From a phage, in NCBI GenBank assembly GCA_021081985.1, contig GCA_021081985.1_3639.2: DNA of 54,988 nucleotides, one strand, 5' to 3'. Numbering within the stretch: the stretch's first letter is position 1; each line of letters opens with the position of its first letter. The notes under the pieces were generated by a model that did no database searches, was not told the DNA's origin, and worked only from the letters and a program-made list of their open reading frames with translations. Positions 12,269 through 54,544 of the stretch are shown in pieces. A program made the position numbers and the translations under genes.

Positions 12269-12443
12269 TGTTTTGTTTCTCTTTAACAATAGGTGCTTTC
12301 TGAACAGAGTATACAAATGTTTTATTGTCTTCAATAAACTTTCTGCCCTGTTCTTCATCTTCAAAAATAATTGTGTCACACTTTGCCTTTAACATACCAC
12401 GTTCTACAGTTGTGTGTGTCGTAGAAACAATTAAAGCCATCAA
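12255..12443 (-). CDS. Hypothetical small protein
   Basis: 62-aa ORF between the RNA ligase and repeat-protein genes. Confidence 0.3.
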   Translation of the reverse strand: MMALIVSTTHTTVERGMLKAKCDTIIFEDEEQGRKFIEDNKTFVYSVQKAPIVKEKQNNDYD

Positions 12444-13474
12444 AACACCTCGTTAAGTTGTTCCATGTACCAACTACGGGCTTTATTTGTTGTAAATTTT
12501 GCCACGTCTTTCATAGAAAGAGAATTGGCTTCTAACACATCTGCTTCTTCTTTGTTGATATCGCGGTTAACCCATGCGATAAATGCCCCCAGAGATGCGA
12601 TGTCCAATCCAATTTCTTGCAACCCTTGTCGTAAACGGTTCTCAGTAACTGCATACTCCACAAAATCTTTGATAGATTGCAGTTTCACAGGATCAACGGC
12701 AGCCAGTGTTTTCACTTTAGAGACAGAATGTTTTTGCCCTTTCACTTTAAACCAAAGTGCAGAAACATGTGCCAAGTGGCGATCTTTAGGTGTCCATACC
12801 ACACCCTCACCAACACCAGATACGCCAAAATATTTACCTACTGGGCACTCTTTTTCTACACCTTCGGTAATCTGTGCAATTTCTGATTGCACTGTCTCTG
12901 GCATGTTAAAAGGAATATCCAGTTCCCACTTACCAAAAGTTAAAATATTATAAATACGTTGTTCTGGTAATCCAATGCCAAGAATATCGTCTAAGGCTAA
13001 CCATTTTCGATGGTCATTCTCTTTTCCTACTGCCACACGGAAAATAGTAAAGAAAGGCATGATTTCAGATACCGCAACACCTTTCTGGATACCTTTTCCT
13101 GAAAATTCCCCAGCAATTTCTACTGGGAACTTAAATTCAATACCCCGATCTTCGCAGATCTGCTTGACTTGCTCCAACAGGGGTTTATGGTCTTTTTCAA
13201 CCATAAAGGCCATAAACCCATAATTATCTTCTTCCAAAGACAAAACGCGTTCTTTGGACTGGTACACAACCTCATCTTCAGAATTAAAGACTACACGGCA
13301 ATTAGTCCCGTGAATTTTAACTGTTCCTACATAAGAAATGAGATATTGATCTGGAGAGGCAACCTTACGCTTTATATTGCCATTCTCATCACGACCATCA
13401 TAAGTCAGACGGTCATTAACCGCTCGGATAACGTTGCGAAATTGACTAGTGCTTGGGTACTTAGTTGCTTGCAT
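12440..13474 (-). CDS. RNA ligase, Rnl2-like (ATP-dependent nucleotidyltransferase)
   Basis: 344 aa; motif I lysine in VKIHGTN (the KxHGxN adenylylation motif of T4 Rnl2); size matches the Rnl2 family. Confidence 0.65.
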   Translation of the reverse strand: MQATKYPSTSQFRNVIRAVNDRLTYDGRDENGNIKRKVASPDQYLISYVGTVKIHGTNCRVVFNSEDEVVYQSKERVLSLEEDNYGFMAFMVEKDHKPLLEQVKQICEDRGIEFKFPVEIAGEFSGKGIQKGVAVSEIMPFFTIFRVAVGKENDHRKWLALDDILGIGLPEQRIYNILTFGKWELDIPFNMPETVQSEIAQITEGVEKECPVGKYFGVSGVGEGVVWTPKDRHLAHVSALWFKVKGQKHSVSKVKTLAAVDPVKLQSIKDFVEYAVTENRLRQGLQEIGLDIASLGAFIAWVNRDINKEEADVLEANSLSMKDVAKFTTNKARSWYMEQLNEVF

Positions 13475-13847
13475 TACTATCTTCCTTATTAATAAAGGTC
13501 ACACCAAGAGTGGCCTGGGCAAGAAGTTTCGTGATCTCCTGGCTCCATACAGGACTGGAGATAAAATGTTGTAATTGGAGGCTACCTAAGCGATAGGCGC
13601 TGTTCATCGTAATAGCATAGATTTCTCCATCGTGCATAATCATGCTTTCGACAACAGAAGTCCTGATATTAGAACCACTAAATCCACGCTTTTTGAGGTC
13701 ATCTGCTAAGTATCCGCAGATACAACGCACATCTTTTGTATAACCAAAACCGAAATAGGGTTCAGCACCAAACAGGATACCAGCGTATCTCTTCCCACAG
13801 ACATAGGTATCTTTAGATACGCCTGTTACAGATTTACTTTCCATCAT
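13461..13847 (-). CDS. Hypothetical protein
   Basis: 128-aa ORF; no motif recognised. Confidence 0.35.
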   Translation of the reverse strand: MMESKSVTGVSKDTYVCGKRYAGILFGAEPYFGFGYTKDVRCICGYLADDLKKRGFSGSNIRTSVVESMIMHDGEIYAITMNSAYRLGSLQLQHFISSPVWSQEITKLLAQATLGVTFINKEDSNASN

Positions 13848-14029
13848 TGTCCCTCCACATCGTCAATATCTTCCATACCATCTTGCCACAGAACTTCATA
13901 GCAAGCGTCATAAATTGCGCTCATAGCATCTTTACGATCTAACACATCTACAATTTTTGGATCAATACTTTTAATTGCTTCCGCAATTTTATCGTAAGCA
14001 ATATCAGGATGCATGTTCTTTTTTGCCAT
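13844..14029 (-). CDS. Hypothetical small protein
   Basis: 61-aa acidic ORF, translationally coupled to neighbours. Confidence 0.3.
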   Translation of the reverse strand: MAKKNMHPDIAYDKIAEAIKSIDPKIVDVLDRKDAMSAIYDACYEVLWQDGMEDIDDVEGQ

Positions 14030-14525
14030 CTGGGATCTCCTCTTCGTTTAAGACATAAATTGTCACATCACAATCATGGAGAACAGATTCTATCATAGTT
14101 TCTATGATTTTCCAATCCCCACCTGCTAGTCCAGCACCTATTTTTGGCAGCCCGATCTTATAATCAGACATAAAGCCATCTGTGTGCCTTTGCAAACAAT
14201 CTCGCATTGCTGCTAAAGAATCGTAAAGGGCGTTATAATTCAGATCCCTCACACCCATTCTACGCCCATTATAGCCGTATTGTGTGTACAGATTAAAACC
14301 CGCCAGCTTACCTTCGTTCATGACAGCCCAAGTATAACTGCCCAGTTTTGTTCGATCACCTTTCTCTGTCTTTAAATCTTCAGCATACATTTTTGGGAAT
14401 GTATTCTTTATTTCTTTAGCAATTCCAGACCCCATGGTGCAAAATGTATTACAACCATGAGCTATCACATTAACATCCCTTTTAAGTGCTGCCTCTATTA
14501 AGCAACCAACTTTATACTTAAGCAT
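14004..14525 (-). CDS. Macro-domain protein (ADP-ribose binding/processing), start trimmed to MLKYKV
   Basis: VIAHGCNTFCTMGSGIAKEIK glycine-rich ADP-ribose-binding signature and C-terminal GLPKIGAGLAGGDW match macro-domain proteins. Confidence 0.55.
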   Translation of the reverse strand: MLKYKVGCLIEAALKRDVNVIAHGCNTFCTMGSGIAKEIKNTFPKMYAEDLKTEKGDRTKLGSYTWAVMNEGKLAGFNLYTQYGYNGRRMGVRDLNYNALYDSLAAMRDCLQRHTDGFMSDYKIGLPKIGAGLAGGDWKIIETMIESVLHDCDVTIYVLNEEEIPDGKKEHAS

Positions 14526-14700
14526 TGTCTGATACCTCTTCGCATTCGTATGGATAGATATCCAGTCTTTTCCCATTCCATTCGCAAGAGTAACACTCAA
14601 GAAAACTACCATTAAATATTTCTTCTCTTACTTCAAGAATATCTCCTGTTTTTGGATATCCATCAACATCCGAAAAATCAGAAATCATTTTAACCTTCAT
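14518..14700 (-). CDS. Hypothetical small protein
   Basis: 60-aa ORF; its ATG overlaps the upstream stop as ATGA. Confidence 0.3.
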   Translation of the reverse strand: MKVKMISDFSDVDGYPKTGDILEVREEIFNGSFLECYSCEWNGKRLDIYPYECEEVSDNA

Positions 14701-22131: not shown

Positions 22132-22239
22132 AATTTAACCACACAGGGAGGCTAACGCACGTAGTCTCCCATATGTCCCCATTTCAGGGACATGGGTATG
22201 TCCCCGTTTTGGGGACACAATACTAACTGATCAAATTAA

Positions 22240-40782: not shown

Positions 40783-40810
40783 AAGCCCCACATGGGGCTT
40801 TTATTTTTAT
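40783..40810. terminator. Bidirectional rho-independent terminator between convergent genes
   Basis: AAGCCCC-ACAT-GGGGCTT flanked by an A-run upstream and a T-run downstream. Confidence 0.6.
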
Positions 40811-41547
40811 TCAAAATCATCAACACCGCTATCGGTAAGGTTTTCTCTGCTCGAAGGTTTTGTCGAAAGAACTTGCTCAAGCAGAGAGGAAAATTTCTGC
40901 AAATTACTTACAGAAGAAGCCCCTGCTGCCATGGCAAGCATATCCACTTCTTTTTCGGTAGGTTGCGTCCAGTCTAGAAACATCTCTTTCATGTACAACG
41001 TTGATGTCCCTATTGGTGTGGCGTGGTCAACCCTATCAGCATAGACCCAGAAAAGAACTTCTTTCTCTATACATACACACAAAGCAGCACCCAACGAGTA
41101 TCCTGCAACGAGGGATGGATATCTTGCAACGAGGATCTCGACATTCAGGTCATCCCAGTGAAATACAACACCCAAACACTTCATATCCACAATGTCTTCC
41201 ACTGCGGGTCTTAGCTCCTCATGGGAAGAAAAGGAGTCATAGTTGATATTCTTTATGAATTTAAGAACGTCTTGGCGGTTGTAGGCACAATCGTTATCAC
41301 CTTGCTTCCAGTAACCCCAAAATGAAGTCGATAAATTCAACCAAAAACTTGCAGTTGTCCCTAATGTCTCAGCCAGTTTTTCAGCCACATCCTCTGATAC
41401 CTCTTCCATGTTATAAAGGATGGTTCTCAACTTATTTACCGGTATACCAGATCTGTCAGCAAGATCATCCACACACCAACCTAATGGATCCAGATATTCG
41501 TGGATAATAACCTCCCCTGGTGACACTGGTGCTCTTTCTTTCTGCAT
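40807..41547 (-). CDS. HTH (XRE/HigA-like) DNA-binding protein with a C-terminal domain of unknown function
   Basis: N-terminus after the internal Met: PVSPGEVIIHEYLDPLGWCVDDLADRSGIPVNKLRTIL ... ASFWLNL resembles HigA-type HTH antitoxins; RBS AAAGGAGAA precedes that ATG. Confidence 0.5.
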   Translation of the reverse strand: MQKERAPVSPGEVIIHEYLDPLGWCVDDLADRSGIPVNKLRTILYNMEEVSEDVAEKLAETLGTTASFWLNLSTSFWGYWKQGDNDCAYNRQDVLKFIKNINYDSFSSHEELRPAVEDIVDMKCLGVVFHWDDLNVEILVARYPSLVAGYSLGAALCVCIEKEVLFWVYADRVDHATPIGTSTLYMKEMFLDWTQPTEKEVDMLAMAAGASSVSNLQKFSSLLEQVLSTKPSSRENLTDSGVDDFE

Positions 41548-41600
41548 TCTTTCTCCTTTCTCTCTACCAGAAAACCCTGCTTTGCAGGGTTTTGTTACTA

Positions 41601-41804
41601 TCAGCATTTAGGCGAGCATTTATCGCACGGGCATGAAATTCCGTGGAAACACAAACCTGTTCCGTCTTTCTTGACCCCTGTTCCACCACATTGGGGACAA
41701 CTATCGTGTAAGCATTTTGTTTTTGTTGTCTCCTCTTTATCTTTATTAAAGAAGTTTTTCATAATCATTTTCTGTTGTTCAATCGTAAACATTTGCGTCC
41801 CCAA
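41601..41804 (-). CDS. Small Cys-rich zinc-binding protein
   Basis: 67 aa with C-x2-C and C-x-C clusters (CPQCGGTG, CPCDKCSPKC). Confidence 0.35.
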   Translation of the reverse strand: MGTQMFTIEQQKMIMKNFFNKDKEETTKTKCLHDSCPQCGGTGVKKDGTGLCFHGISCPCDKCSPKC

Positions 41805-42085: not shown

Positions 42086-42314
42086 TCAAAAACCTCGTTT
42101 CTTCAAACTGCTCTGGTGTCAATAAACTTGTTCCTACACGACTGCCATTGCCACACATAATGGGCACGGCAATCATGTGGCTATCCTTTTCTGCATTACC
42201 TAAATCAAGGTACTGCCCATAACGTTTGATAAGTCGGATACTCATTTTTGAATTAGCTAAAGCCCTTGTATTATAGAGATAATCCTCAAGGTACAAATGT
42301 AGAGCGTTTGCCAC
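42066..42314 (-). CDS. Hypothetical protein
   Basis: 82-aa ORF. Confidence 0.3.
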   Translation of the reverse strand: MANALHLYLEDYLYNTRALANSKMSIRLIKRYGQYLDLGNAEKDSHMIAVPIMCGNGSRVGTSLLTPEQFEETRFLSEKEDY

Positions 42315-42316
42315 CT

Positions 42317-42565
42317 TTAAAGATTTTGATAAGAATAATTTATTACGCCGGACCAGTTTTTTTTTTCTTCATGCAACCCTCGCTTGTGCCTGTACATTGC
42401 TAAAGGCCATACAGAACTCACTATAAAGCATTTCCATGCCCAACCCCATGGAGTCTTTGGTGCATAAGCTCGTTCAAGCCATTTACTCTTTTCCATCTCT
42501 GCCGTATGTACAAACCATACGGCAATATACAGTGCAACTATAATGTAGATAAAGCCATTAATCAT
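42317..42565 (-). CDS. Small membrane protein
   Basis: 82 aa; hydrophobic N-terminus MINGFIYIIVALYIAVWFV. Confidence 0.3.
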   Translation of the reverse strand: MINGFIYIIVALYIAVWFVHTAEMEKSKWLERAYAPKTPWGWAWKCFIVSSVWPLAMYRHKRGLHEEKKNWSGVINYSYQNL

Positions 42566-43619
42566 TCATCTTATCCCAACACATTTGTTGTGCTGTCATC
42601 AAAACATCGGCAGCAAAGTTAAGATCTGTTGTCTTCGGTAAATGCGTGTTCTTGTACAGAGTGTTACGAATATAATCATCCTTCTCTTCTGCCCAAGCCA
42701 AGAGCTTCTCCAAAGACCATGCACCATTTCTGATTGCAAGAAGCTCCTGAGCATCAGGTCTTTTTACAAGAACTTTCCCTTCCGTCAGGATTTCTTCTGC
42801 TTGTCGCATCAACCTAACCAAGTGCATACCATGCTTTGAATCGAAGCCATACTTTTCTTCTAACTCATGACGTGCTGGGTTTCTGTTTTCAACCCATGTC
42901 CAGTAGTTCTTATGCTTTTCCTTTGCTTGTTTATGGTCATCTGCTAGATACTTAACGATTAAAATTGGTTTACGTTTCTTATCCTCGCCAGAGAACTGTT
43001 CGTATGGGACTTTACGAATAGAGCCGTCAGAGTTAAACAAGCCAGCATTGTCGTGTGTTCCGATCACGCCATAGATATTATCACCCATTGGTAAAAAGAC
43101 ACACAACTTGTTAAGGTCATCCAGCATTTTCTGGAAGTCTTTGTGTTTTGTAAGATTATCATCCATCCACGAGTGTGTCAAGCGCATGAACTCTTTTTGT
43201 GTTGGTTGCTCTTTAGGCTGCGGGTTATTAATCCATTTATTATGGCCTTTGATACGCTTCAGTTGCGCCATCGCGTACCCAGAAAATGTAAAAGCAACTT
43301 TGCTGGATAGGAGTTTTGGCGCTTGCTCGCGTAGGTACTCGTAAACATCTGAAGTTTGCAGAATGTCACCTCTATCAACAAACATAAGCTCGATGATGTT
43401 TGGGTTCATATCAACGAACAACTTCATGTAGTTTGTTAGCTCATACAGCTTACCATCCTCTTCATCAATAAGAGTCATTTCTCTGTCAACGAAAAATGGG
43501 GTAAGAATGCTTTTAGGCTCTGCACAATAAATTCCGCGAATATCCACATCGGATGTTGGTAAGTTAGTTCCATAGGCAATACTACCGGAGTAACAACGCA
43601 TTAGTTCTAGTTTCTTCAT
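42558..43619 (-). CDS. Pol-beta superfamily nucleotidyltransferase
   Basis: 353 aa; N-terminal G-S-x4-G-T-x4-S-D-V-D-I (GSIAYGTNLPTSDVDI), the minimal NTase signature shared by OAS/CD-NTase-like and RNA-modifying NTases. Confidence 0.55.
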   Translation of the reverse strand: MKKLELMRCYSGSIAYGTNLPTSDVDIRGIYCAEPKSILTPFFVDREMTLIDEEDGKLYELTNYMKLFVDMNPNIIELMFVDRGDILQTSDVYEYLREQAPKLLSSKVAFTFSGYAMAQLKRIKGHNKWINNPQPKEQPTQKEFMRLTHSWMDDNLTKHKDFQKMLDDLNKLCVFLPMGDNIYGVIGTHDNAGLFNSDGSIRKVPYEQFSGEDKKRKPILIVKYLADDHKQAKEKHKNYWTWVENRNPARHELEEKYGFDSKHGMHLVRLMRQAEEILTEGKVLVKRPDAQELLAIRNGAWSLEKLLAWAEEKDDYIRNTLYKNTHLPKTTDLNFAADVLMTAQQMCWDKMND

Positions 43620-43996
43620 TGTTGTACCTTTTTGTCTTTTCTTGCATTATCCCAAAAATTAAGGATATTTTGGTATCGGATCTTGTCTTCCATATATTCA
43701 GCTTCATCCCGAAGATCGCATACATGATCTATTAAGGCACATACCTCATTATGGTATTCTGTATTACTGGTGATGTGCTTAATCATACAAGATCCTGCTT
43801 TCCATTTCGAGAGGGAGTATCTCAGATTATCATCTTTTTCTGTGGGGGAAGCATCAACTAGCACCTTTGCCCTGTTCCCTTGTATCGTTTGTATTGTTCC
43901 TTGGCGCAGTTCGTTATTACCCCAATAGATAAATACTGTATCGCCAACAAATAATCTTGTTCCGCTTGCATCCCTCATTTTATGCCCCCAACACAA
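43616..43996 (-). CDS. Hypothetical protein
   Basis: 126-aa ORF. Confidence 0.35.
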   Translation of the reverse strand: MCWGHKMRDASGTRLFVGDTVFIYWGNNELRQGTIQTIQGNRAKVLVDASPTEKDDNLRYSLSKWKAGSCMIKHITSNTEYHNEVCALIDHVCDLRDEAEYMEDKIRYQNILNFWDNARKDKKVQQ

Positions 43997-44363
43997 AGAA
44001 ATAGTGAACTGTTACCGCTGCGAAGTAAAGCGTTTTGTAAATCAATTGTAACCAGCAATCTCTGTTTGTATACACTTTTCCTGCTAAGATATAGCTACCT
44101 GTTACGAAATGCTCACACACCCAGATCCCCATCAGGAAACCACTAAGCAAGCCTCCTGTTGGTGGTGTTAGTGTGGTAATCATTGCAATTCCTTCGAGGA
44201 AAGTGAATATGAAGAAATATGAGAATCCTTCTCTTGCACATTTTATTCCTCTGCCAGTAACACAGGTATGAACTAAACCTATGAGACAAAAGATCGTCCA
44301 AAGTACATACAATGTATAAACCATAAACCACTTAACCCAAAAAAAAAATGTTAACCTCTCCAA
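43980..44363 (-). CDS. Putative membrane protein
   Basis: 127 aa with several hydrophobic stretches. Confidence 0.35.
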   Translation of the reverse strand: MERLTFFFWVKWFMVYTLYVLWTIFCLIGLVHTCVTGRGIKCAREGFSYFFIFTFLEGIAMITTLTPPTGGLLSGFLMGIWVCEHFVTGSYILAGKVYTNRDCWLQLIYKTLYFAAVTVHYFFVLGA

Positions 44364-44393
44364 CCCTATCAGAGAGGTTTCAGAAATGATTTG

Positions 44394-44891
44394 TTACTCA
44401 CCTTTCAGCTTAAAACTTTTCAATGTTTTGATAAAGTTTTTCTCTGCTGGTGTGTAAGTGTGAACGAAACCTGTTTCTTCACAGGTGTAGGTATCATTAA
44501 TCTCCATCGCATGTTGAGGGATAAATGCACCTTCAGGAGCAGGTTTATATTCTGGGTTGTAGATAAACTCCGGCAGCACAACAGCTACAGCAGTCATTGC
44601 TCCGTTCAAGGCTTTCTTTTCTTCACGCCACCACGCTACTGGGTAAGTCTCTAAAGACATTGCCTGGTCAAGAAAATCTTCAAGCACGGACTGATAACCG
44701 CCATTCAAAACAATAATGGTCTTATCTTCTTCTTTCCAGCATTTCAGCCAATAGTGTGCAGTGATCTGCTCTGGTGTATATGCTTCACCACTATGCAAAA
44801 CCATAAGCTCTGCAATGGCGTGTGCTGATTGGATACCAGCATGGATACCGGAGATATACTGATTAACAATACAATACATTCTTGTTTTCAT
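44394..44891 (-). CDS. Hypothetical protein, possibly PTH2-like peptidyl-tRNA hydrolase fold
   Basis: 165 aa; spacing of AGIQSAHAIAEL, a conserved W, IVLNGG and MTAVAVVLP resembles the PTH2 core. Tentative. Confidence 0.3.
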   Translation of the reverse strand: MKTRMYCIVNQYISGIHAGIQSAHAIAELMVLHSGEAYTPEQITAHYWLKCWKEEDKTIIVLNGGYQSVLEDFLDQAMSLETYPVAWWREEKKALNGAMTAVAVVLPEFIYNPEYKPAPEGAFIPQHAMEINDTYTCEETGFVHTYTPAEKNFIKTLKSFKLKGE

Positions 44892-45106
44892 TTTTGTTTT
44901 TTCCTCAGAATTATTCTATCTTCACTAAAAATTTCCTGTAACCCAGCAGCTATCAGTGCAAATATTGCTACCCACCATACAACTAACAGGAGTACCCCAA
45001 CAAGCAAATCTCTACCTGTGATCTGTTGCTCAATCCTGTAGGTAAAAATAAAGAAAGCTACGGATACTAAAGCACCAACAAAGAAGTAGATAAACACTTC
45101 AGTCAT
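44888..45106 (-). CDS. Small membrane protein
   Basis: 72 aa, two hydrophobic helices. Confidence 0.3.
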   Translation of the reverse strand: MTEVFIYFFVGALVSVAFFIFTYRIEQQITGRDLLVGVLLLVVWWVAIFALIAAGLQEIFSEDRIILRKKQK

Positions 45107-45434
45107 TATCTCTTTTCTCCAAATCCCGTTTCTCCAAGTATCCTTTTACCATAAGTGCTACAGCGTAAATTCCCACAAGACAAATACAAAATGTAAAAAT
45201 AATAGGTAAAACCATTACCGCAAACATCATAAATAGCGGTCCCGCAACAGTAATGAATGCTGTTCCAAGCAACAATAGAAATACTACATATTTATCTGCC
45301 GTCTCATCCACCTTCTTAAGATACACACCTAAACACACAGAAGACAATAGGAATGATAGAATGGACAGCAACAGATACCAATTATCAATAAAGATGATAA
45401 TTGGACCAGCAACATTTTCTAACCACCACATCAT
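45099..45434 (-). CDS. Membrane protein
   Basis: 111 aa, three hydrophobic segments. Confidence 0.35.
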   Translation of the reverse strand: MMWWLENVAGPIIIFIDNWYLLLSILSFLLSSVCLGVYLKKVDETADKYVVFLLLLGTAFITVAGPLFMMFAVMVLPIIFTFCICLVGIYAVALMVKGYLEKRDLEKRDND

Positions 45435-45448
45435 ATATACTTACCTCT

Positions 45449-46693
45449 TTAGAATAACATATCCCTGCTGATTGCTTTACGAATAGCATCAATACGGGCT
45501 ACTCGCACAGCTTCACCAATCTCTTTACCATTCTTACCCTTTTCCAGAAGGGGTTTTGTTATAGCTTTAGAATCAACTTTTGTCATAGCGTCGTAGGCTT
45601 CCAGCAAAATATGACCTTGAAGATAAGGCTTATGCCTAAAATCACCACCTCTTCCTTTAGCATCACAATAACACGCATCTGCAAGTGTGTAAACCTTCAT
45701 TTTCTGATCCGCTTGTCCAGCAGCTTCAAATATTTTCATGATGCTTTTTGGTTTCAAACCGTTGTTACCATCTCTGGGAGAGATGGCGTGCACTTTTGTG
45801 TGATTTTCTGCAACATATTTTGCCGTGTCACGATAGATATTATAAATCTTCAACCTTTCACACAAGGATTGGATAACATCTACACCAGCTTTCTCATGAC
45901 CATGAAGATTACCATTGTCCTTGTAAGTTATAGCTTTGCCAAAATCATGGCACAGCACAGCAAACTTGGTCAGTGGATCAGCTTCTAATTCATCAGCAAC
46001 CCTTAACGCTAGAATTGTATGGGTGTAAGCATCCCCTTCTGGGTGATGTTCTTTAGGTTGTTGCACACCACGTAGGGCTTCCAGTTCAGGAAGTTCGCCA
46101 ATACGTCCCATATTGACAGCAAAAGATCTGAAATAACTACTCTTTAAGGCTTTCAACATTTCCTTCCATTTACGCTCGGCGCTTATTTCTGCCAAAGAGT
46201 GTCGGTTGTCATAAGCCAGTTTAAAAGTTTCTGGATGGATATGCCATTCTTCCCCAAGCTGGGCTTTAAATCTAAACAGGCGTAGAATACGTAATGGATC
46301 TTCAATAAACGCCTCTGATGTATGACGTAATGTTTTAAGTCCTAAGTCAACCTGACCGCCAAAAGGATCAATAATCTCACCACTATCAACATCCATCGCC
46401 ATGGAGTTGATGGTAAGATCTCTACGTGCCAAATCCTCTTCCAGTGTTACATCTGGACTAAAGCATACCTCAAATCCTTTATGGCCTTCGCCTGTTTTTC
46501 TTTCTGTGCGTGCAAGAGCGTACTCTTCTCTTGTTTCTGGGTGAAGATAAACTGGAAAAGATGCGCCAACTTGTGTGAACCCTCTTTTCAGCATCTCTTC
46601 ATGCGTAGCACCAACAACCACATAATCACGGTCTGATATTTCACGACCTAACAATTTATCTCTTACTGCGCCACCTACCAAGTATACCTTCAT
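45449..46693 (-). CDS. cca: CCA-adding enzyme (tRNA nucleotidyltransferase) with C-terminal HD domain
   Basis: MKVYLVGGAVRDKLLG, RDYVVVG, EEYALARTERK, RRDLTINS, GEIIDPFGG and EDPLRILRLFRF closely parallel the E. coli Cca head domain (recalled); C-terminal HDFGKA ... HGHEKAG gives the HD motif. Confidence 0.8.
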   Translation of the reverse strand: MKVYLVGGAVRDKLLGREISDRDYVVVGATHEEMLKRGFTQVGASFPVYLHPETREEYALARTERKTGEGHKGFEVCFSPDVTLEEDLARRDLTINSMAMDVDSGEIIDPFGGQVDLGLKTLRHTSEAFIEDPLRILRLFRFKAQLGEEWHIHPETFKLAYDNRHSLAEISAERKWKEMLKALKSSYFRSFAVNMGRIGELPELEALRGVQQPKEHHPEGDAYTHTILALRVADELEADPLTKFAVLCHDFGKAITYKDNGNLHGHEKAGVDVIQSLCERLKIYNIYRDTAKYVAENHTKVHAISPRDGNNGLKPKSIMKIFEAAGQADQKMKVYTLADACYCDAKGRGGDFRHKPYLQGHILLEAYDAMTKVDSKAITKPLLEKGKNGKEIGEAVRVARIDAIRKAISRDMLF

Positions 46694-47016
46694 TTCTTCG
46701 CCCACGTATTCATATAATTAACAATATCTTTTACGGTTCTCTTTCCGTCCAGTGGATAAACCATGTCATCGCTCATCCCACCGTGTTTTAGCATTGCTAC
46801 CAGTCTAGTATATACCTCTTTTGGTCTTTTGCAAGTTCTTTTCTTCCATTTATGACCGTCTGGGGAGTACTCCTTATCTTCAAGAGAGATATGAAGGATG
46901 TCTCCTATAAACTCTTTTGCCTGTGTGCTGTAAAGCGGACGGTGGAATATATAGAATTTCATTGCTTGCTCCTTTATTGTAATAACAATATCAGTGCAAG
47001 CTACATGTGTCAACAC
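46690..47016 (-). CDS. Hypothetical protein
   Basis: 108-aa ORF. Confidence 0.35.
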   Translation of the reverse strand: MLTHVACTDIVITIKEQAMKFYIFHRPLYSTQAKEFIGDILHISLEDKEYSPDGHKWKKRTCKRPKEVYTRLVAMLKHGGMSDDMVYPLDGKRTVKDIVNYMNTWAKK

Positions 47017-47044
47017 ATAAAGAAAAACCCGCTAAAAAGCGGGT
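47017..47044 (-). terminator. Putative rho-independent terminator (minus strand)
   Basis: On the minus strand AACCCGC-TTTTTA-GCGGGTT is followed by TTTCTTT. Confidence 0.45.
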
Positions 47045-47052
47045 TATCTCTC

Positions 47053-47334
47053 TTACCATGTTACAAATATGTTTATAGATGTGCCTTGTTTTGTTGGCTG
47101 ATAGCTAATAATATCTACCGTGAAACCACCACCACGAAGATCGCCAACAATATGAGGCAGGTAATCACCCATTTCCTCCGGGAACTGTAGTGACATACCC
47201 ATTCCAAATAGACCTTTCTTTGCACATTGGCTGATCCCGTTTACTATCTGGTCGTACAGTTCCACCAGAGATTTTGGGGTGTCCTTTTTCGACTTGTTCG
47301 CTATCTCTCTCATTTTGCTGGCGACATTTGCCAT
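47053..47334 (-). CDS. Hypothetical protein; overlaps the 3' end of the Dam-like gene in another frame
   Basis: 93-aa ORF with protein-like composition; about 170 nt overlap with 47165..47845. Confidence 0.35.
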   Translation of the reverse strand: MANVASKMREIANKSKKDTPKSLVELYDQIVNGISQCAKKGLFGMGMSLQFPEEMGDYLPHIVGDLRGGGFTVDIISYQPTKQGTSINIFVTW

Positions 47335-54019: not shown

Positions 54020-54238
54020 CGCACCATTACGTGCTGCTGCATGTCACCATGCAGATCAGACCATATCTTCATGCTTAAAGCATGTCTGCCGTTTGGGGTG
54101 TCATCAGCTTACACTCTACATCCTTACATTCATCAGGATTGGTCGTTAGGCATTTACGGTTGATACCGATTTAGCACGGGATTCCCTCCATAGAGGATTC
54201 CCCCGTTTAGGCAGATTTTACATGAGCAGTTATAGTTT
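54020..54238 (-). other. Group I intron (ORF-less, about 220 nt) within nrdD; boundaries approximate
   Basis: Minus strand CUAAACGGGGGAAUCCUCUAUGGAGGGAAUCCCGUGCUAAAUCGG closely resembles the T4 td intron core as recalled; R-like AACGACCA and S-like GAUAUGGUC show a compensatory P7 change (GACCA/UGGUC); GNRA hairpin CUGCAUG-GUGA-CAUGCAG near the 3' end; P1 candidate exon CAUGGGU with guide GCUCAUG. Confidence 0.7.
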
Positions 54239-54544
54239 ACCCATGCTTGTAACACGCCCGTCTGAAGAACCTGTTACCTTTTTATTCAACGGTACAGATA
54301 TGAAATCTGGATAAATCCTTTCAACACAACACTCCATGGCTAATTGCTTTAAGTCGTAGTTTGGATCGCCAGGCTTCATGTTTACACCATCTTCCAAGAA
54401 GAAGATAACTTTTGGAAAAACAGGTGTGACTTTATCTTTGCCAAGTCCGTTTTTGTGAACAAGAAAATAATTCTTTGTAATCATTCTCCCAAAATAGGAA
54501 GTATCAAGCCCAAGGCTCAAGGTGATAAATGGGCATTGCATTGC
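54239..54544 (-). CDS. nrdD: NrdD internal exon; boundaries approximate
   Basis: ORF 54230..54541 (MQCPFITLSLGLDTS ... RVTSMG); the in-frame stop lies just inside the following intron. Confidence 0.55.

Follow-up and report, generated by a model that had tools for sequence, protein, structure and literature searches.

Phage T4 provides the paradigm for phage repair of host-inflicted tRNA damage: its Pnkp and Rnl1 counter the anticodon nuclease PrrC. T4 is not known to encode a Cca. The tRNA genes of E. coli encode CCA, and the Cca of this bacterium serves repair. A second group of systems has been described for jumbo phages through comparative genomics, where RlaP, the CCA-adding enzyme and PTH2 are named together as RNA-repair components in section 3.4.9 of Iyer et al. 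2021 (PMC7824862). The same text also places RNA ligase and Pnkp among the phage tRNA-repair families, and cites Burroughs & Aravind 2016 for phage RNA-repair gene sets. In bacteria, RlaP is found in RtcB-RlaP-RtcA operons of Pseudomonas fluorescens and P. aeruginosa; two Pseudomonas RlaP enzymes add 1–2 NMP to an RNA 3'-OH in vitro and, given a mimic of a cleaved tRNA, favor its broken end (PMC12776372).

We found components of this kind side by side in the window, as we call the whole 54,988-nucleotide stretch of phage DNA that was analysed. It belongs to an Avunavirus phage (Vequintavirinae) and its DNA is 90–94% identical to that of E. coli phage Av-05. Between positions 42317 and 47016, the minus strand encodes Cca, two small membrane proteins, a PTH2-fold protein (hereafter PTH2L), a further membrane protein, a DUF7205 protein and an RlaP-family nucleotidyltransferase (NTase). 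Several junctions within this block show 4–8 nt overlaps or ATGA-type stop/start overlaps. The first-pass annotation had described a compact, co-oriented neighborhood here, and every gene that it named is indeed present on the minus strand and tightly packed. RefSeq labels the three enzyme genes tRNA nucleotidyltransferase, hydrolase and nucleotidyltransferase, respectively. With moderate confidence, we interpret the block as a phage tRNA 3'-end repair and recycling cassette with Cca, PTH2L and RlaP as its core.

The Cca gene (45449..46705, minus strand) encodes a class II CCA-adding enzyme whose C-terminal part is an HD phosphohydrolase domain. Translation from the likely start, an ATG at 46693, gives a protein of 414 aa, matching the Av-05 annotation. 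Its Pfam matches (PolyA_pol 9.7e-22, PolyA_pol_RNAbd 4.1e-06 and HD 1.5e-07) and a full-length match to the NCBIfam model PRK10885, "multifunctional CCA addition/repair protein" (1.2e-126, covering 1–404 of 409), bear out the earlier assignment, with a PRK10885 score of 423 bits that lies just under the equivalog cut-off of 451 bits. The protein also matches phrog_2244 (4.5e-145), and when aligned with the CCA enzyme of B. stearothermophilus (1miv) it preserves the GGAVRD, DxD, RRDxTxN and EDxLR motifs. It has the head, neck and HD domains of the multifunctional E. coli Cca, with every head motif, but is encoded by a phage, in linkage with PTH2L and RlaP.

The NTase gene (42558..43619, minus strand, 353 aa) had been noted for a generic signature, GS-x4-GT-x4-SDVD. 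A Pol-beta-type motif is present, but its first spacer is x3, not x4 (G12-S13-x3-G17-T18-x4-S23-D24-V-D26). G12, S13, D24, D26 and D55 are invariant across 48 homologues. Residues 7–123 match Pfam RlaP (PF10127; 7.7e-14, 52.4 bits vs a cut-off of 23), and the protein also matches phrog_388 (1.8e-78). Among the 120 matches listed for it, all 119 full-length ones carry PF10127; the exception, P0074, covers 57% of the query. In the AlphaFold2 (AF2) model (pLDDT 92.5), an N-terminal NTase domain and a C-terminal helical domain are separated by an alpha/beta insertion of ~115 residues (roughly 130–245), which we delimited by alignment to short-form RlaPs of 250–257 aa. The PDB copy searched held no solved RlaP structure for comparison. 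The Pseudomonas enzymes belong to the same Pfam family and have the same two domains and the three-carboxylate Pol-beta active site. In contrast, the insertion that makes the phage protein a long form is absent from this characterized type, and the phage gene lies near Cca and PTH2L instead of RtcB and RtcA. A T4 counterpart also exists: T4 NrdC.11 is an RlaP, and nrdC.11 of the T4-like phage RB16 is a weak match to the NTase.

The call of a possible PTH2-like protein at 44394..44891 (minus strand, 165 aa) survived fold comparison although its sequence match is weak, with a Pfam PTH2 score of 17.9 bits (0.0038) under the cut-off of 23. The AF2 model has a pLDDT of 95.4, and its best 11 Foldseek matches in the PDB are all PTH2 enzymes (E 6e-5 to 6e-4, probability 1.00, target TM 0.61–0.69). 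Alignment against PTH2 with hhalign gave E 1.3e-4 (probability 53%), and phrog_3668, "hydrolase", is matched at 4.2e-48. The family comprises 2470 clusters at 50% identity and has no Pfam family. PTH2L consists of a PTH2-like core of ~110 residues and a C-terminal extension of ~55 residues that distinguishes it from archaeal and eukaryotic Pth2 (S. solfataricus 1xty, human Bit1 1q7s). It shares their fold and still has the helix motif Q-x-x-H, a Trp and the Pro at the end of the core, but is only 15–23% identical to them. Three residues invariant in solved PTH2s are replaced: K18 by His, D86 by Glu and T90 by Ala. It is therefore possible that the substrate is not peptidyl-tRNA. However, the family has its own invariant polar residues at equivalent positions (Q21, H24, K57, T58, E90 and T100, with H17 nearly invariant), which argues for catalysis. 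We predict that PTH2L hydrolyses 3' esters of tRNA, using an active site that is non-canonical.

The first-pass annotation had counted three small membrane proteins as part of the module. All three exist, each with 2–3 hydrophobic 19-residue segments, but between the three enzyme genes of other lineages they are poorly conserved or absent. The 111-aa protein at 45099..45434 (minus strand; weak match to phrog_29214) has a homologue solely in Av-05 among the loci compared; it is lineage-specific and outside the conserved core. Its neighbor at 44888..45106 (minus strand, 72 aa, two TM segments, phrog_14512 "membrane protein") is only 24% identical to its KB57 counterpart; the Vibrio, Barba and L032 cassettes described below lack it. 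The third (43980..44363, minus strand; phrog_16835 "membrane protein", 3.6e-44) has 127 aa if it starts at a TTG, or 114 aa if, like its Av-05 counterpart, it starts at an ATG (44324); it is 30% identical to its SalP219 counterpart and absent elsewhere. These membrane genes are lineage-specific filler, not conserved parts of the module. A fourth small protein with one N-terminal TM segment (42317..42565, minus strand, phrog_11850) is encoded by a gene that overlaps the RlaP stop and is kept in Seuna- and Mydovirus at 30–35% identity. The DUF7205 gene (43616..43996, minus strand; Pfam PF23835 2.5e-33, phrog_2112) had been overlooked in the first reading of the block. From its likely ATG at 43978 it encodes 120 aa, like its homologues, with a weak N-terminal KOW-like Pfam match. 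It lies directly upstream of RlaP, and its stop overlaps the RlaP start. This pairing occurs only in Avuna-, Seuna- and Mydovirus and Erwinia phages (loci L005, L006, L016–L018, L020–L023 and L027).

The probable transcription unit has its upstream end at 46690..47045 (minus strand), judging from consensus matches: a terminator-like hairpin at 47045–47026 and a sigma-70-like promoter at 47013–46985, upstream of Cca. A small conserved ORF (phrog_7526) also precedes Cca, its stop overlapping the Cca ATG. Between PTH2L and the next gene, a terminator-like scan and the sequence revealed a 12-bp stem hairpin followed by a run of 10 U (44340..44379, minus strand). We treat it as a consensus match only, because the surrounding 81 nt fold no better than shuffles (z -1.16). 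It may be an intrinsic terminator or attenuator, in which case the block would comprise two transcription units.

Among 50,697 phage records, RlaP-like (379), PTH2-like (176) and Cca (508) proteins are each found in 1% or less. Cca, PTH2L and RlaP follow one another in this order on one strand in four Vequintavirinae genera (Avunavirus, Seunavirus, Mydovirus and Certrevirus). They are directly adjacent, without membrane genes, in Vibrio phage 495E54-1, Rheinheimera phage Barba19A and the IMG/VR contigs L032 and L046. In the compact cassettes PTH2L lies between the other two, and its start overlaps or abuts the end of Cca. The Barbavirus genomes show cassette-like gain and loss. In the flanks, which end at the Cca start and resume shortly after the RlaP stop, Barba19A and Barba5S share 99.7% identity; in between, Barba19A has the 2.65-kb trio and Barba5S has ~290 nt, a clean presence/absence indel. 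Barba8S has Cca and PTH2L but no RlaP. Compared with the window, the Barba RlaP is only 20% identical and the PTH2L 43%, so that a different RlaP lineage fills the same gene "syntax". Other contigs contain further repair genes: in L046, Pnkp is encoded 1.6 kb upstream of Cca; in L045, PTH2L has an RNA ligase upstream and a short-form RlaP downstream; and in L041, RlaP and a 3'-5' exoribonuclease are found near PTH2L. Within 7 kb of PTH2L, 13 of 42 IMG/VR clusters have Cca, 10 have RlaP and 7 have both, more than expected by chance. Since several of the trio lineages are related by descent (the Vequintavirinae genera, and L032 with its further shared gene downstream), the independent observations are few, roughly the Vequintavirinae-like phages, the Vibrio phage, Barbavirus and L046. 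Across them, the conserved core is Cca, PTH2L and RlaP.

It is possible, though rather doubtful, that the three are separate housekeeping or auxiliary genes that share a conserved early-gene region by coincidence, with no concerted module and no counter-defence: Cca and PTH2L would raise translational capacity through tRNA end turnover and relief of peptidyl-tRNA drop-off, and the NTase would be unrelated. Given the broad synteny among Vequintavirinae, an arrangement conserved inside this subfamily says little in favor of a module. Moreover, the three genes are dispersed in jumbo phages, about two thirds of the PTH2L clusters lack both Cca and RlaP at distances of up to 7 kb, and the hairpin described above may split the block. 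However, the contiguous trio recurs outside Vequintavirinae, in Barbavirus it comes and goes as one exact indel with a different RlaP lineage in the same position, and elsewhere PTH2L neighbors an RNA ligase and the trio a Pnkp. A related view, which we consider unlikely, is that PTH2L is no tRNA esterase but acts on another substrate or binds RNA or protein without catalysis; the block would then consist of a pair of enzymes adding nucleotides to 3' ends, Cca and RlaP, and an unrelated passenger. The replaced PTH2 invariants and sub-threshold Pfam score fit this view, as does the occurrence of PTH2L both beside plasmid genes of the ArdC/TraD type and in T4-like phages that have no Cca or RlaP; the family's own conserved polar residues and its tight placement between Cca and RlaP speak against it.

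Two further explanations center on the membrane proteins, which adjoin the NTase in the window lineage. The NTase and these proteins could form an exclusion, toxin-antitoxin or Hailong-like system in which an oligonucleotide made by the NTase restrains a membrane effector. This is very improbable: the likeness to HalB (13% identity, TM 0.2–0.3) does not go beyond the fold common to NTases, the TM genes are variable or absent beside orthologous NTases, whose constant neighbors are Cca and PTH2L, and PADLOC gave zero matches (2023 library; Hailong may lie outside it). Least credible, and already disfavored, is a CD-NTase/OAS-like nucleotide-signal synthase, sponge or decoy with the membrane proteins as effectors or targets. 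The generic Pol-beta GS...DxD signature would fit, but no CD-NTase/OAS or defence-system similarity was found for the block.

The recurrence of the trio as one cassette in several phage lineages makes a kit for repairing tRNA ends the most likely interpretation. An RNA-end-modifying or repair module had already been proposed from the gene content, and the confirmed PTH2 fold, the trio's recurrence and the in vitro addition of nucleotides to RNA 3'-OH ends by the RlaP family (PMC12776372) strengthen this proposal. All 14 tRNA genes of Av-05 encode CCA, which favors repair over maturation; the repair logic of E. coli Cca applies equally to these relatives of the window phage. We infer the substrates of RlaP and PTH2L and the order of steps as follows. 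On a tRNA that has stalled or been modified by a toxin, PTH2L would clear the 3' end of its peptidyl or N-blocked aminoacyl group, and the HD domain of Cca would strip the 2',3'-cyclic or 3'-phosphate left by a nuclease. RlaP would restore one or two nucleotides when trimming exceeds what Cca can rebuild, and Cca would then rebuild C74-C75-A76 to give a chargeable tRNA. Alternatively, RlaP may act at an anticodon-loop break before ligation by the phage's Rnl2-type RNA ligase (PF09414; 12440..13474, minus strand; Pfam RNA_ligase 1.3e-09, phrog_548 7.5e-73). This ligase is the one likely to do the sealing in RlaP-type repair, although its distance of ~29 kb from the cassette counts against the proposed reading, as does the insertion in the window's RlaP. 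After the ligase gene come a "methyltransferase" phrog (13461–13847) and a macro-domain protein (14004–14612; Macro 2e-4, just under the cut-off). The selective driver would most likely be host tRNA-targeting toxins or defence nucleases, and the cassette probably has a counter-defence role, although simple tRNA recycling under heavy phage translation could also drive its maintenance.

T4 heals and seals anticodon-loop breaks, whereas the cassette enzymes would act on 3' termini by CCA addition, ester hydrolysis and the addition of 1–2 nt. With the sets described in PMC7824862, the locus shares the component families acting on damaged tRNA and the modular "syntax" with component displacement, seen here in the Barbavirus RlaP, the Pnkp of L046 and the ligase of L045. 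Those sets, as outlined there, belong to jumbo phages, with RlaP tracking RNA ligases; the window phage has ~120–150 kb, its trio forms a contiguous or near-contiguous cassette without a ligase, and its PTH2 member comes from a divergent family scoring below the Pfam PTH2 threshold. The earlier remark, which knew of no described phage module of this composition, therefore holds in part: the components had been named together, but the literature searched yielded no account of the contiguous Cca-PTH2L-RlaP cassette itself. The parts are known individually; the cassette as a unit would be an addition to the described phage RNA-repair systems.

The minus-strand block between 42317 and 47016 contains nine protein genes, delimited with an ORF list and family scans. 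In transcription order, these are a small conserved ORF (46690-47016, phrog_7526), Cca (45449-46705), two membrane proteins of 111 aa (45099-45434, two to three hydrophobic segments) and 72 aa (44888-45106, two segments), a 165-aa protein with similarity to type 2 peptidyl-tRNA hydrolases (PTH2L, 44394-44891, phrog_3668), a further membrane protein of 127 aa (43980-44363, two to three hydrophobic segments), a DUF7205 protein (43616-43996, PF23835, E 2.5e-33), a 353-aa nucleotidyltransferase of the RlaP family (42558-43619, phrog_388, E 1.8e-78) and an 82-aa protein with one TM segment (42317-42565). The membrane-protein calls are backed by hydropathy. The first-pass annotation had described this region as a compact neighbourhood of RNA-end enzymes and small membrane proteins; with small corrections, the ORF list, family scans and hydropathy agree with it. 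All genes that it named are present, but the list was incomplete, as the DUF7205 gene had gone unmentioned. Region 42300-47100 shares 90–94% DNA identity with Escherichia phage Av-05 (Avunavirus, Vequintavirinae), with vB_EcoM_TH18 and with three 54-kb records. The RefSeq labels in the Av-05 block read tRNA nucleotidyltransferase, two membrane proteins, hydrolase, nucleotidyltransferase and hypotheticals. None of the nine proteins matched the PADLOC 2023 HMMs at an E-value of 0.01 or better, and in the NCBIfam scan only Cca gave a match.

The Rfam scan of the block and its surroundings was negative for structured RNAs. PTH2L is followed, ahead of the next gene, by a terminator-like hairpin with a U10 tract, and a terminator and promoter-like pair is located upstream of the block (47045-46985); both are consensus matches. 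They would suggest two transcription units. This statement is tentative because the promoter scan was not enriched over shuffled sequences (23 found, 21.7 expected) and the hairpin region folds no better than shuffles. Downstream of RlaP, a small Cys-rich protein (41601-41804, minus strand; CxxCxGxG ... CPCxKC) is encoded, a homologue of which also follows RlaP in the metagenomic contig L032. A 266-aa protein with a HigA-like N-terminus (40807-41607, minus strand) carries the Av-05 annotation 'plasmid antitoxin with HTH domain'; a toxin partner is not evident.

The window is not colinear with Av-05. Its positions 1-22194 correspond to Av-05 80633-102827 and positions 22166-50095 to Av-05 13595-41739, so that at the junction (22166-22194) these two segments are joined directly and the structural genes and a cluster of 14 tRNA genes are skipped. 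Due to this different order, the window is without the tRNA cluster, yet carries the phage RNA ligase; ARAGORN found no tRNA genes in it. The public 54-kb 'phage' records OK181862, OK136181 and OK181860 match the cassette region and the last 5 kb of the window at 90–96% identity, and the window may therefore represent a partial or rearranged assembly type. Near its end, a group I intron is present (54037-54277, minus strand; match to the full Rfam model RF00028 with 80.9 bits). At this place, the annotation of related records shows a class III anaerobic ribonucleotide reductase large subunit (nrdD) in fragments, a situation that recalls the T4 nrdD/sunY intron.

Cca, a class II CCA-adding enzyme of the multifunctional type, has three domains: a PolyA_pol head (PF01743, 9.7e-22), an RNA-binding part and an intact HD domain (PF01966, 1.5e-07, residues 227-315; HDIG TIGR00277, 3.4e-05). 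The GGxVRD/DxD, RRD and EDxxR motifs are visible in an alignment to 1miv. The NCBIfam model PRK10885 aligns over 1-404 of 409 positions with E 1.2e-126; the score of 422.9 bits is below the equivalog cut-off of 451, which makes the protein, judged by sequence, a close PRK10885 homologue just under the threshold. The HD domain of E. coli Cca has phosphatase and 2',3'-cyclic phosphodiesterase activity. Maturation of phage tRNAs was considered as the main reason for carrying the gene and rejected: the CCA is already encoded at the end of each of the 14 Av-05 tRNA genes, so Cca is not needed for their maturation, as in E. coli. Repair of damaged ends appears to be the more natural role.

The nucleotidyltransferase scores 52.4 bits against the RlaP model PF10127 (cut-off 23, E 7.7e-14), and PF10127 was found in all 119 full-length homologues among the 120 matches listed, the exception (P0074) covering 57% of the query. 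The Pfam match is limited to residues 7-123 because about 115 residues are inserted between the two RlaP domains. This insertion is shared with the L032 relative and a protein of jumbo phage CBB, and we refer to such proteins as long-form RlaP; the C-terminal part can still be aligned with short-form RlaPs. The AF2 model (pLDDT 92.5) displays an N-terminal alpha/beta domain followed by C-terminal helices. Neither single-sequence nor profile searches against PDB sequences returned anything useful. The Pol-beta signature noticed at first pass is genuine, except that its first spacer has three residues instead of four (GS-x3-GT-x4-SDVD). All 48 homologues keep G12, S13, D24, D26 and D55, which provide the G-S pair, the D-x-D and the third carboxylate of the signature. 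Three strictly conserved Asp residues have also been reported for RlaP in a December 2025 preprint (PMC12776372). According to that study, two Pseudomonas enzymes (P. fluorescens, P. aeruginosa) add 1–2 NMP to RNA 3'-OH ends in a Mn2+-dependent manner, are inactive on DNA and protein, prefer the broken end when given a mimic of cleaved tRNA, and can make a tRNA with one lost nucleotide aminoacylatable again; T4 NrdC.11 belongs to the same family. In the jumbo phages CBB and XaC1, the long-form RlaP gene lies about 4 kb downstream of a gene for Thg1 tRNA-His guanylyltransferase, another tRNA-end enzyme, which acts at the 5' end.

No RNA ligase gene adjoins RlaP in the window. The only one, of the Rnl2 type (12440-13474, minus strand), is about 29 kb away, so that the phage possesses a sealing enzyme, though not beside RlaP. 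Within the ligase region (12440-14612, minus strand), the ligase (PF09414) precedes a protein of 128 aa with a 'methyltransferase' phrog, an ORF of 61 aa and a macro-domain protein (phrog 'phosphatase'); together these may be a second RNA-end-processing cluster.

PTH2L matches Pfam PTH2 (PF01981) with 17.9 bits (E 0.0038), below the cut-off of 23, and no PDB sequence was matched even with a 52-sequence profile. The first-pass annotation had called it possibly PTH2-like, a call that the fold search upheld. With an AF2 model of high confidence (pLDDT 95.4), the best 11 Foldseek matches were all PTH2 enzymes (probability 1.00, E 6e-5 to 6e-4), among them S. solfataricus 1xty, MJ0051, PH1539, AF2095 and human Bit1, and nothing unrelated scored better than E 0.3. 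A profile-profile comparison (hhalign) with five solved PTH2 sequences gave E 1.3e-4 at a probability of 53%, placing Q21, H24 and R89 of PTH2L opposite Q22, H25 and E85. The modelled structure thus points to a PTH2 fold, but the Pfam score stays under its cut-off and the canonical residues are replaced. K18, D86 and T90 (S. solfataricus numbering), invariant in the five solved PTH2s, are reportedly the catalytic residues (Fromant et al. 2005). In the extended register, they correspond to H17, E90 and A94 of PTH2L, the T90 mapping being uncertain by one residue. Since H17 is nearly invariant and E90 invariant in the phage family, the site is altered yet possibly active. The family has its own set of invariant polar residues, is extended at the C-terminus by about 55 residues and numbers 2470 representatives at 50% identity (E 1e-3 or better); Pfam holds no model for it. 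Homologues in two other large phages (L011:5405-6375 and L041:6986-10533) are found beside or near an Rv2179c-like (DexA-like) 3'-5' exoribonuclease gene, in L011 also about 6 kb from an SmpB homologue. Another one (L014:3513-6537) has the anti-restriction gene ArdC and TraD-type genes about 1.5 kb away; the contig is plasmid/ICE-like, so that the context is that of a conjugative element and not of a phage.

Within Vequintavirinae, the order Cca, PTH2L, RlaP is kept in Seunavirus (SalP219), Mydovirus (KB57) and Certrevirus (PBES 02), while the small genes in between differ. Outside this subfamily, the three genes are directly adjacent in Vibrio phage 495E54-1, in Rheinheimera phage Barba19A (Barbavirus, 84.6 kb) and in the IMG/VR contigs L032 and L046. 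One further downstream gene is common to L032 and the window, so L032 is probably a distant relative; Barbavirus shares no further flank with the window. Its RlaP is only 20% identical to that of the window, compared to 43% for PTH2L, and thus represents a different RlaP lineage at the same position. Three near-identical Rheinheimera phages of one host strain display an exact presence/absence polymorphism. On both sides of the trio, Barba19A and Barba5S share 99.7% identity: on one side, the match runs to the start codon of Cca, and on the other it resumes shortly past the stop of RlaP. Where Barba19A has the 2.65-kb trio, Barba5S has about 290 nt. Barba8S has Cca and PTH2L and about 220 nt where RlaP would be, which makes RlaP alone a 0.97-kb indel. 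PTH2L occurs in only 5 Rheinheimera records, against 115 that match the flanks.

Other RNA-processing genes accompany the trio or parts of it. L046 carries Pnkp (AAA_33 + HAD_PNKP, 2.4e-40) 1.6 kb upstream of Cca, and its RlaP gene (L046:7417-9241) is interrupted by an ORF for a GIY-YIG/NUMOD3 homing endonuclease, which leaves separate ORFs for the N- and C-terminal parts. An RNA ligase (PF09414 + OB domain), PTH2L and a short-form RlaP lie within 4.5 kb in contig L045, RlaP being 2.8 kb from the ligase, and L041 combines RlaP, PTH2L and the exoribonuclease. None of the three families (RlaP, PTH2L, Cca) is found in more than 1% of 50,697 phage records. Of 42 IMG/VR PTH2L clusters (70% identity or more), 13 have Cca, 10 RlaP and 7 both on the same strand within 7 kb. 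Two observations count against linkage: roughly two thirds of the PTH2L clusters, including T4-like phages and the ArdC/TraD plasmid-like contig, have neither Cca nor RlaP as neighbour, and in jumbo phages the trio genes are dispersed, with RlaP near Thg1.

The small membrane proteins were considered part of the module at first pass. We rejected this because other lineages lack conserved counterparts of them between the enzyme genes; on these comparisons, they appear to be lineage-specific insertions outside the proposed mechanism. The DUF7205 gene, whose stop overlaps the RlaP start, is confined to some Vequintavirinae among the loci compared, and homologue searches returned near-identical proteins only. 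Speculatively, its product may be an accessory factor.

RlaP above its Pfam cut-off, the PTH2 fold and the fact that the trio recurs in phages of other groups support the RNA-end repair module proposed at first pass. The block is a real and coherent feature, and we consider it probable that it is a cassette for repair and recycling of tRNA 3' ends; that counter-defence drives it is less certain. PTH2L would clear a peptidyl or N-blocked aminoacyl group from the 3' end, and the HD domain of Cca would remove terminal phosphates. RlaP would then restore one or two nucleotides where the loss reaches past the CCA, or act at an anticodon-loop break ahead of ligation, and Cca would rebuild the CCA; the order of the four steps is hypothetical. 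The genes might instead be independent housekeeping helpers that happen to sit in a syntenic region, in which case the finding would be an ordinary annotation of the Vequintavirinae early region. The dispersed arrangements fit such independence, but the Barbavirus indel and the trio outside the subfamily weaken it, and we regard it as possible though doubtful.

Two further explanations start from the nucleotidyltransferase. A role in nucleotide signalling, which the first-pass annotation had left open, seems extremely improbable: fold similarity of the cGAS/OAS type (CD-NTase or OAS-cGAS) was not found for the protein, and the membrane genes are not conserved. The latter point also makes a Hailong or TA-like pairing of nucleotidyltransferase and membrane protein very improbable. 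Concerning PTH2L itself, the altered active site would be in line with a substrate other than tRNA, which we judge unlikely. An equally unlikely but more far-reaching idea is that the PTH2L family forms a new class of enzymes for 'deblocking' tRNA 3' ends. They would undo a specific acceptor-end modification inflicted by toxins or defence systems, in a horizontally mobile cassette dedicated to anti-defence, together with Cca and long-form RlaP. Candidate targets may be N-acetyl-aminoacyl groups from GNAT toxins or another ester or adduct.

No known phage module of this composition had been recognized at first pass. In the literature searched, this holds for the contiguous cassette, while its components had already been catalogued as phage RNA repair: Iyer et al. 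list RlaP, the CCA-adding enzyme and PTH2 in their survey of jumbo phages (PMC7824862, section 3.4.9), and RaK2 encodes Cca, Pth2, Pnk and RNA ligase (PMC3622015). The components and the repair idea are thus known. Our literature search turned up no account of Cca, PTH2L and RlaP as a contiguous cassette or of the way in which it behaves as an indel, nor of the long-form RlaP or the divergent family of PTH2L.

Bacterial immune systems and toxins often attack tRNA, by means of anticodon nucleases, acceptor-stem nucleases, and CCA-end pyrophosphorylation, nucleotidylation or acetylation. Phages are known to respond with replacement tRNAs and with the heal-and-seal reaction of T4 Pnkp/Rnl. The polymorphism among Barbavirus phages infecting one host strain is a natural experiment and offers a handle for experimental work, as do the large uncharacterised PTH2-fold family with its altered active site and the long-form RlaP with its extra subdomain. 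If the deblocking idea is true, the cassette would be a counter-defence that restores chargeable tRNA after acceptor-end attack, a strategy distinct from both T4 anticodon-loop heal-and-seal and phage-encoded replacement tRNAs. A compact cassette made up solely of 3'-acceptor-end enzymes would suggest that a second repair route exists, directed at the acceptor end.
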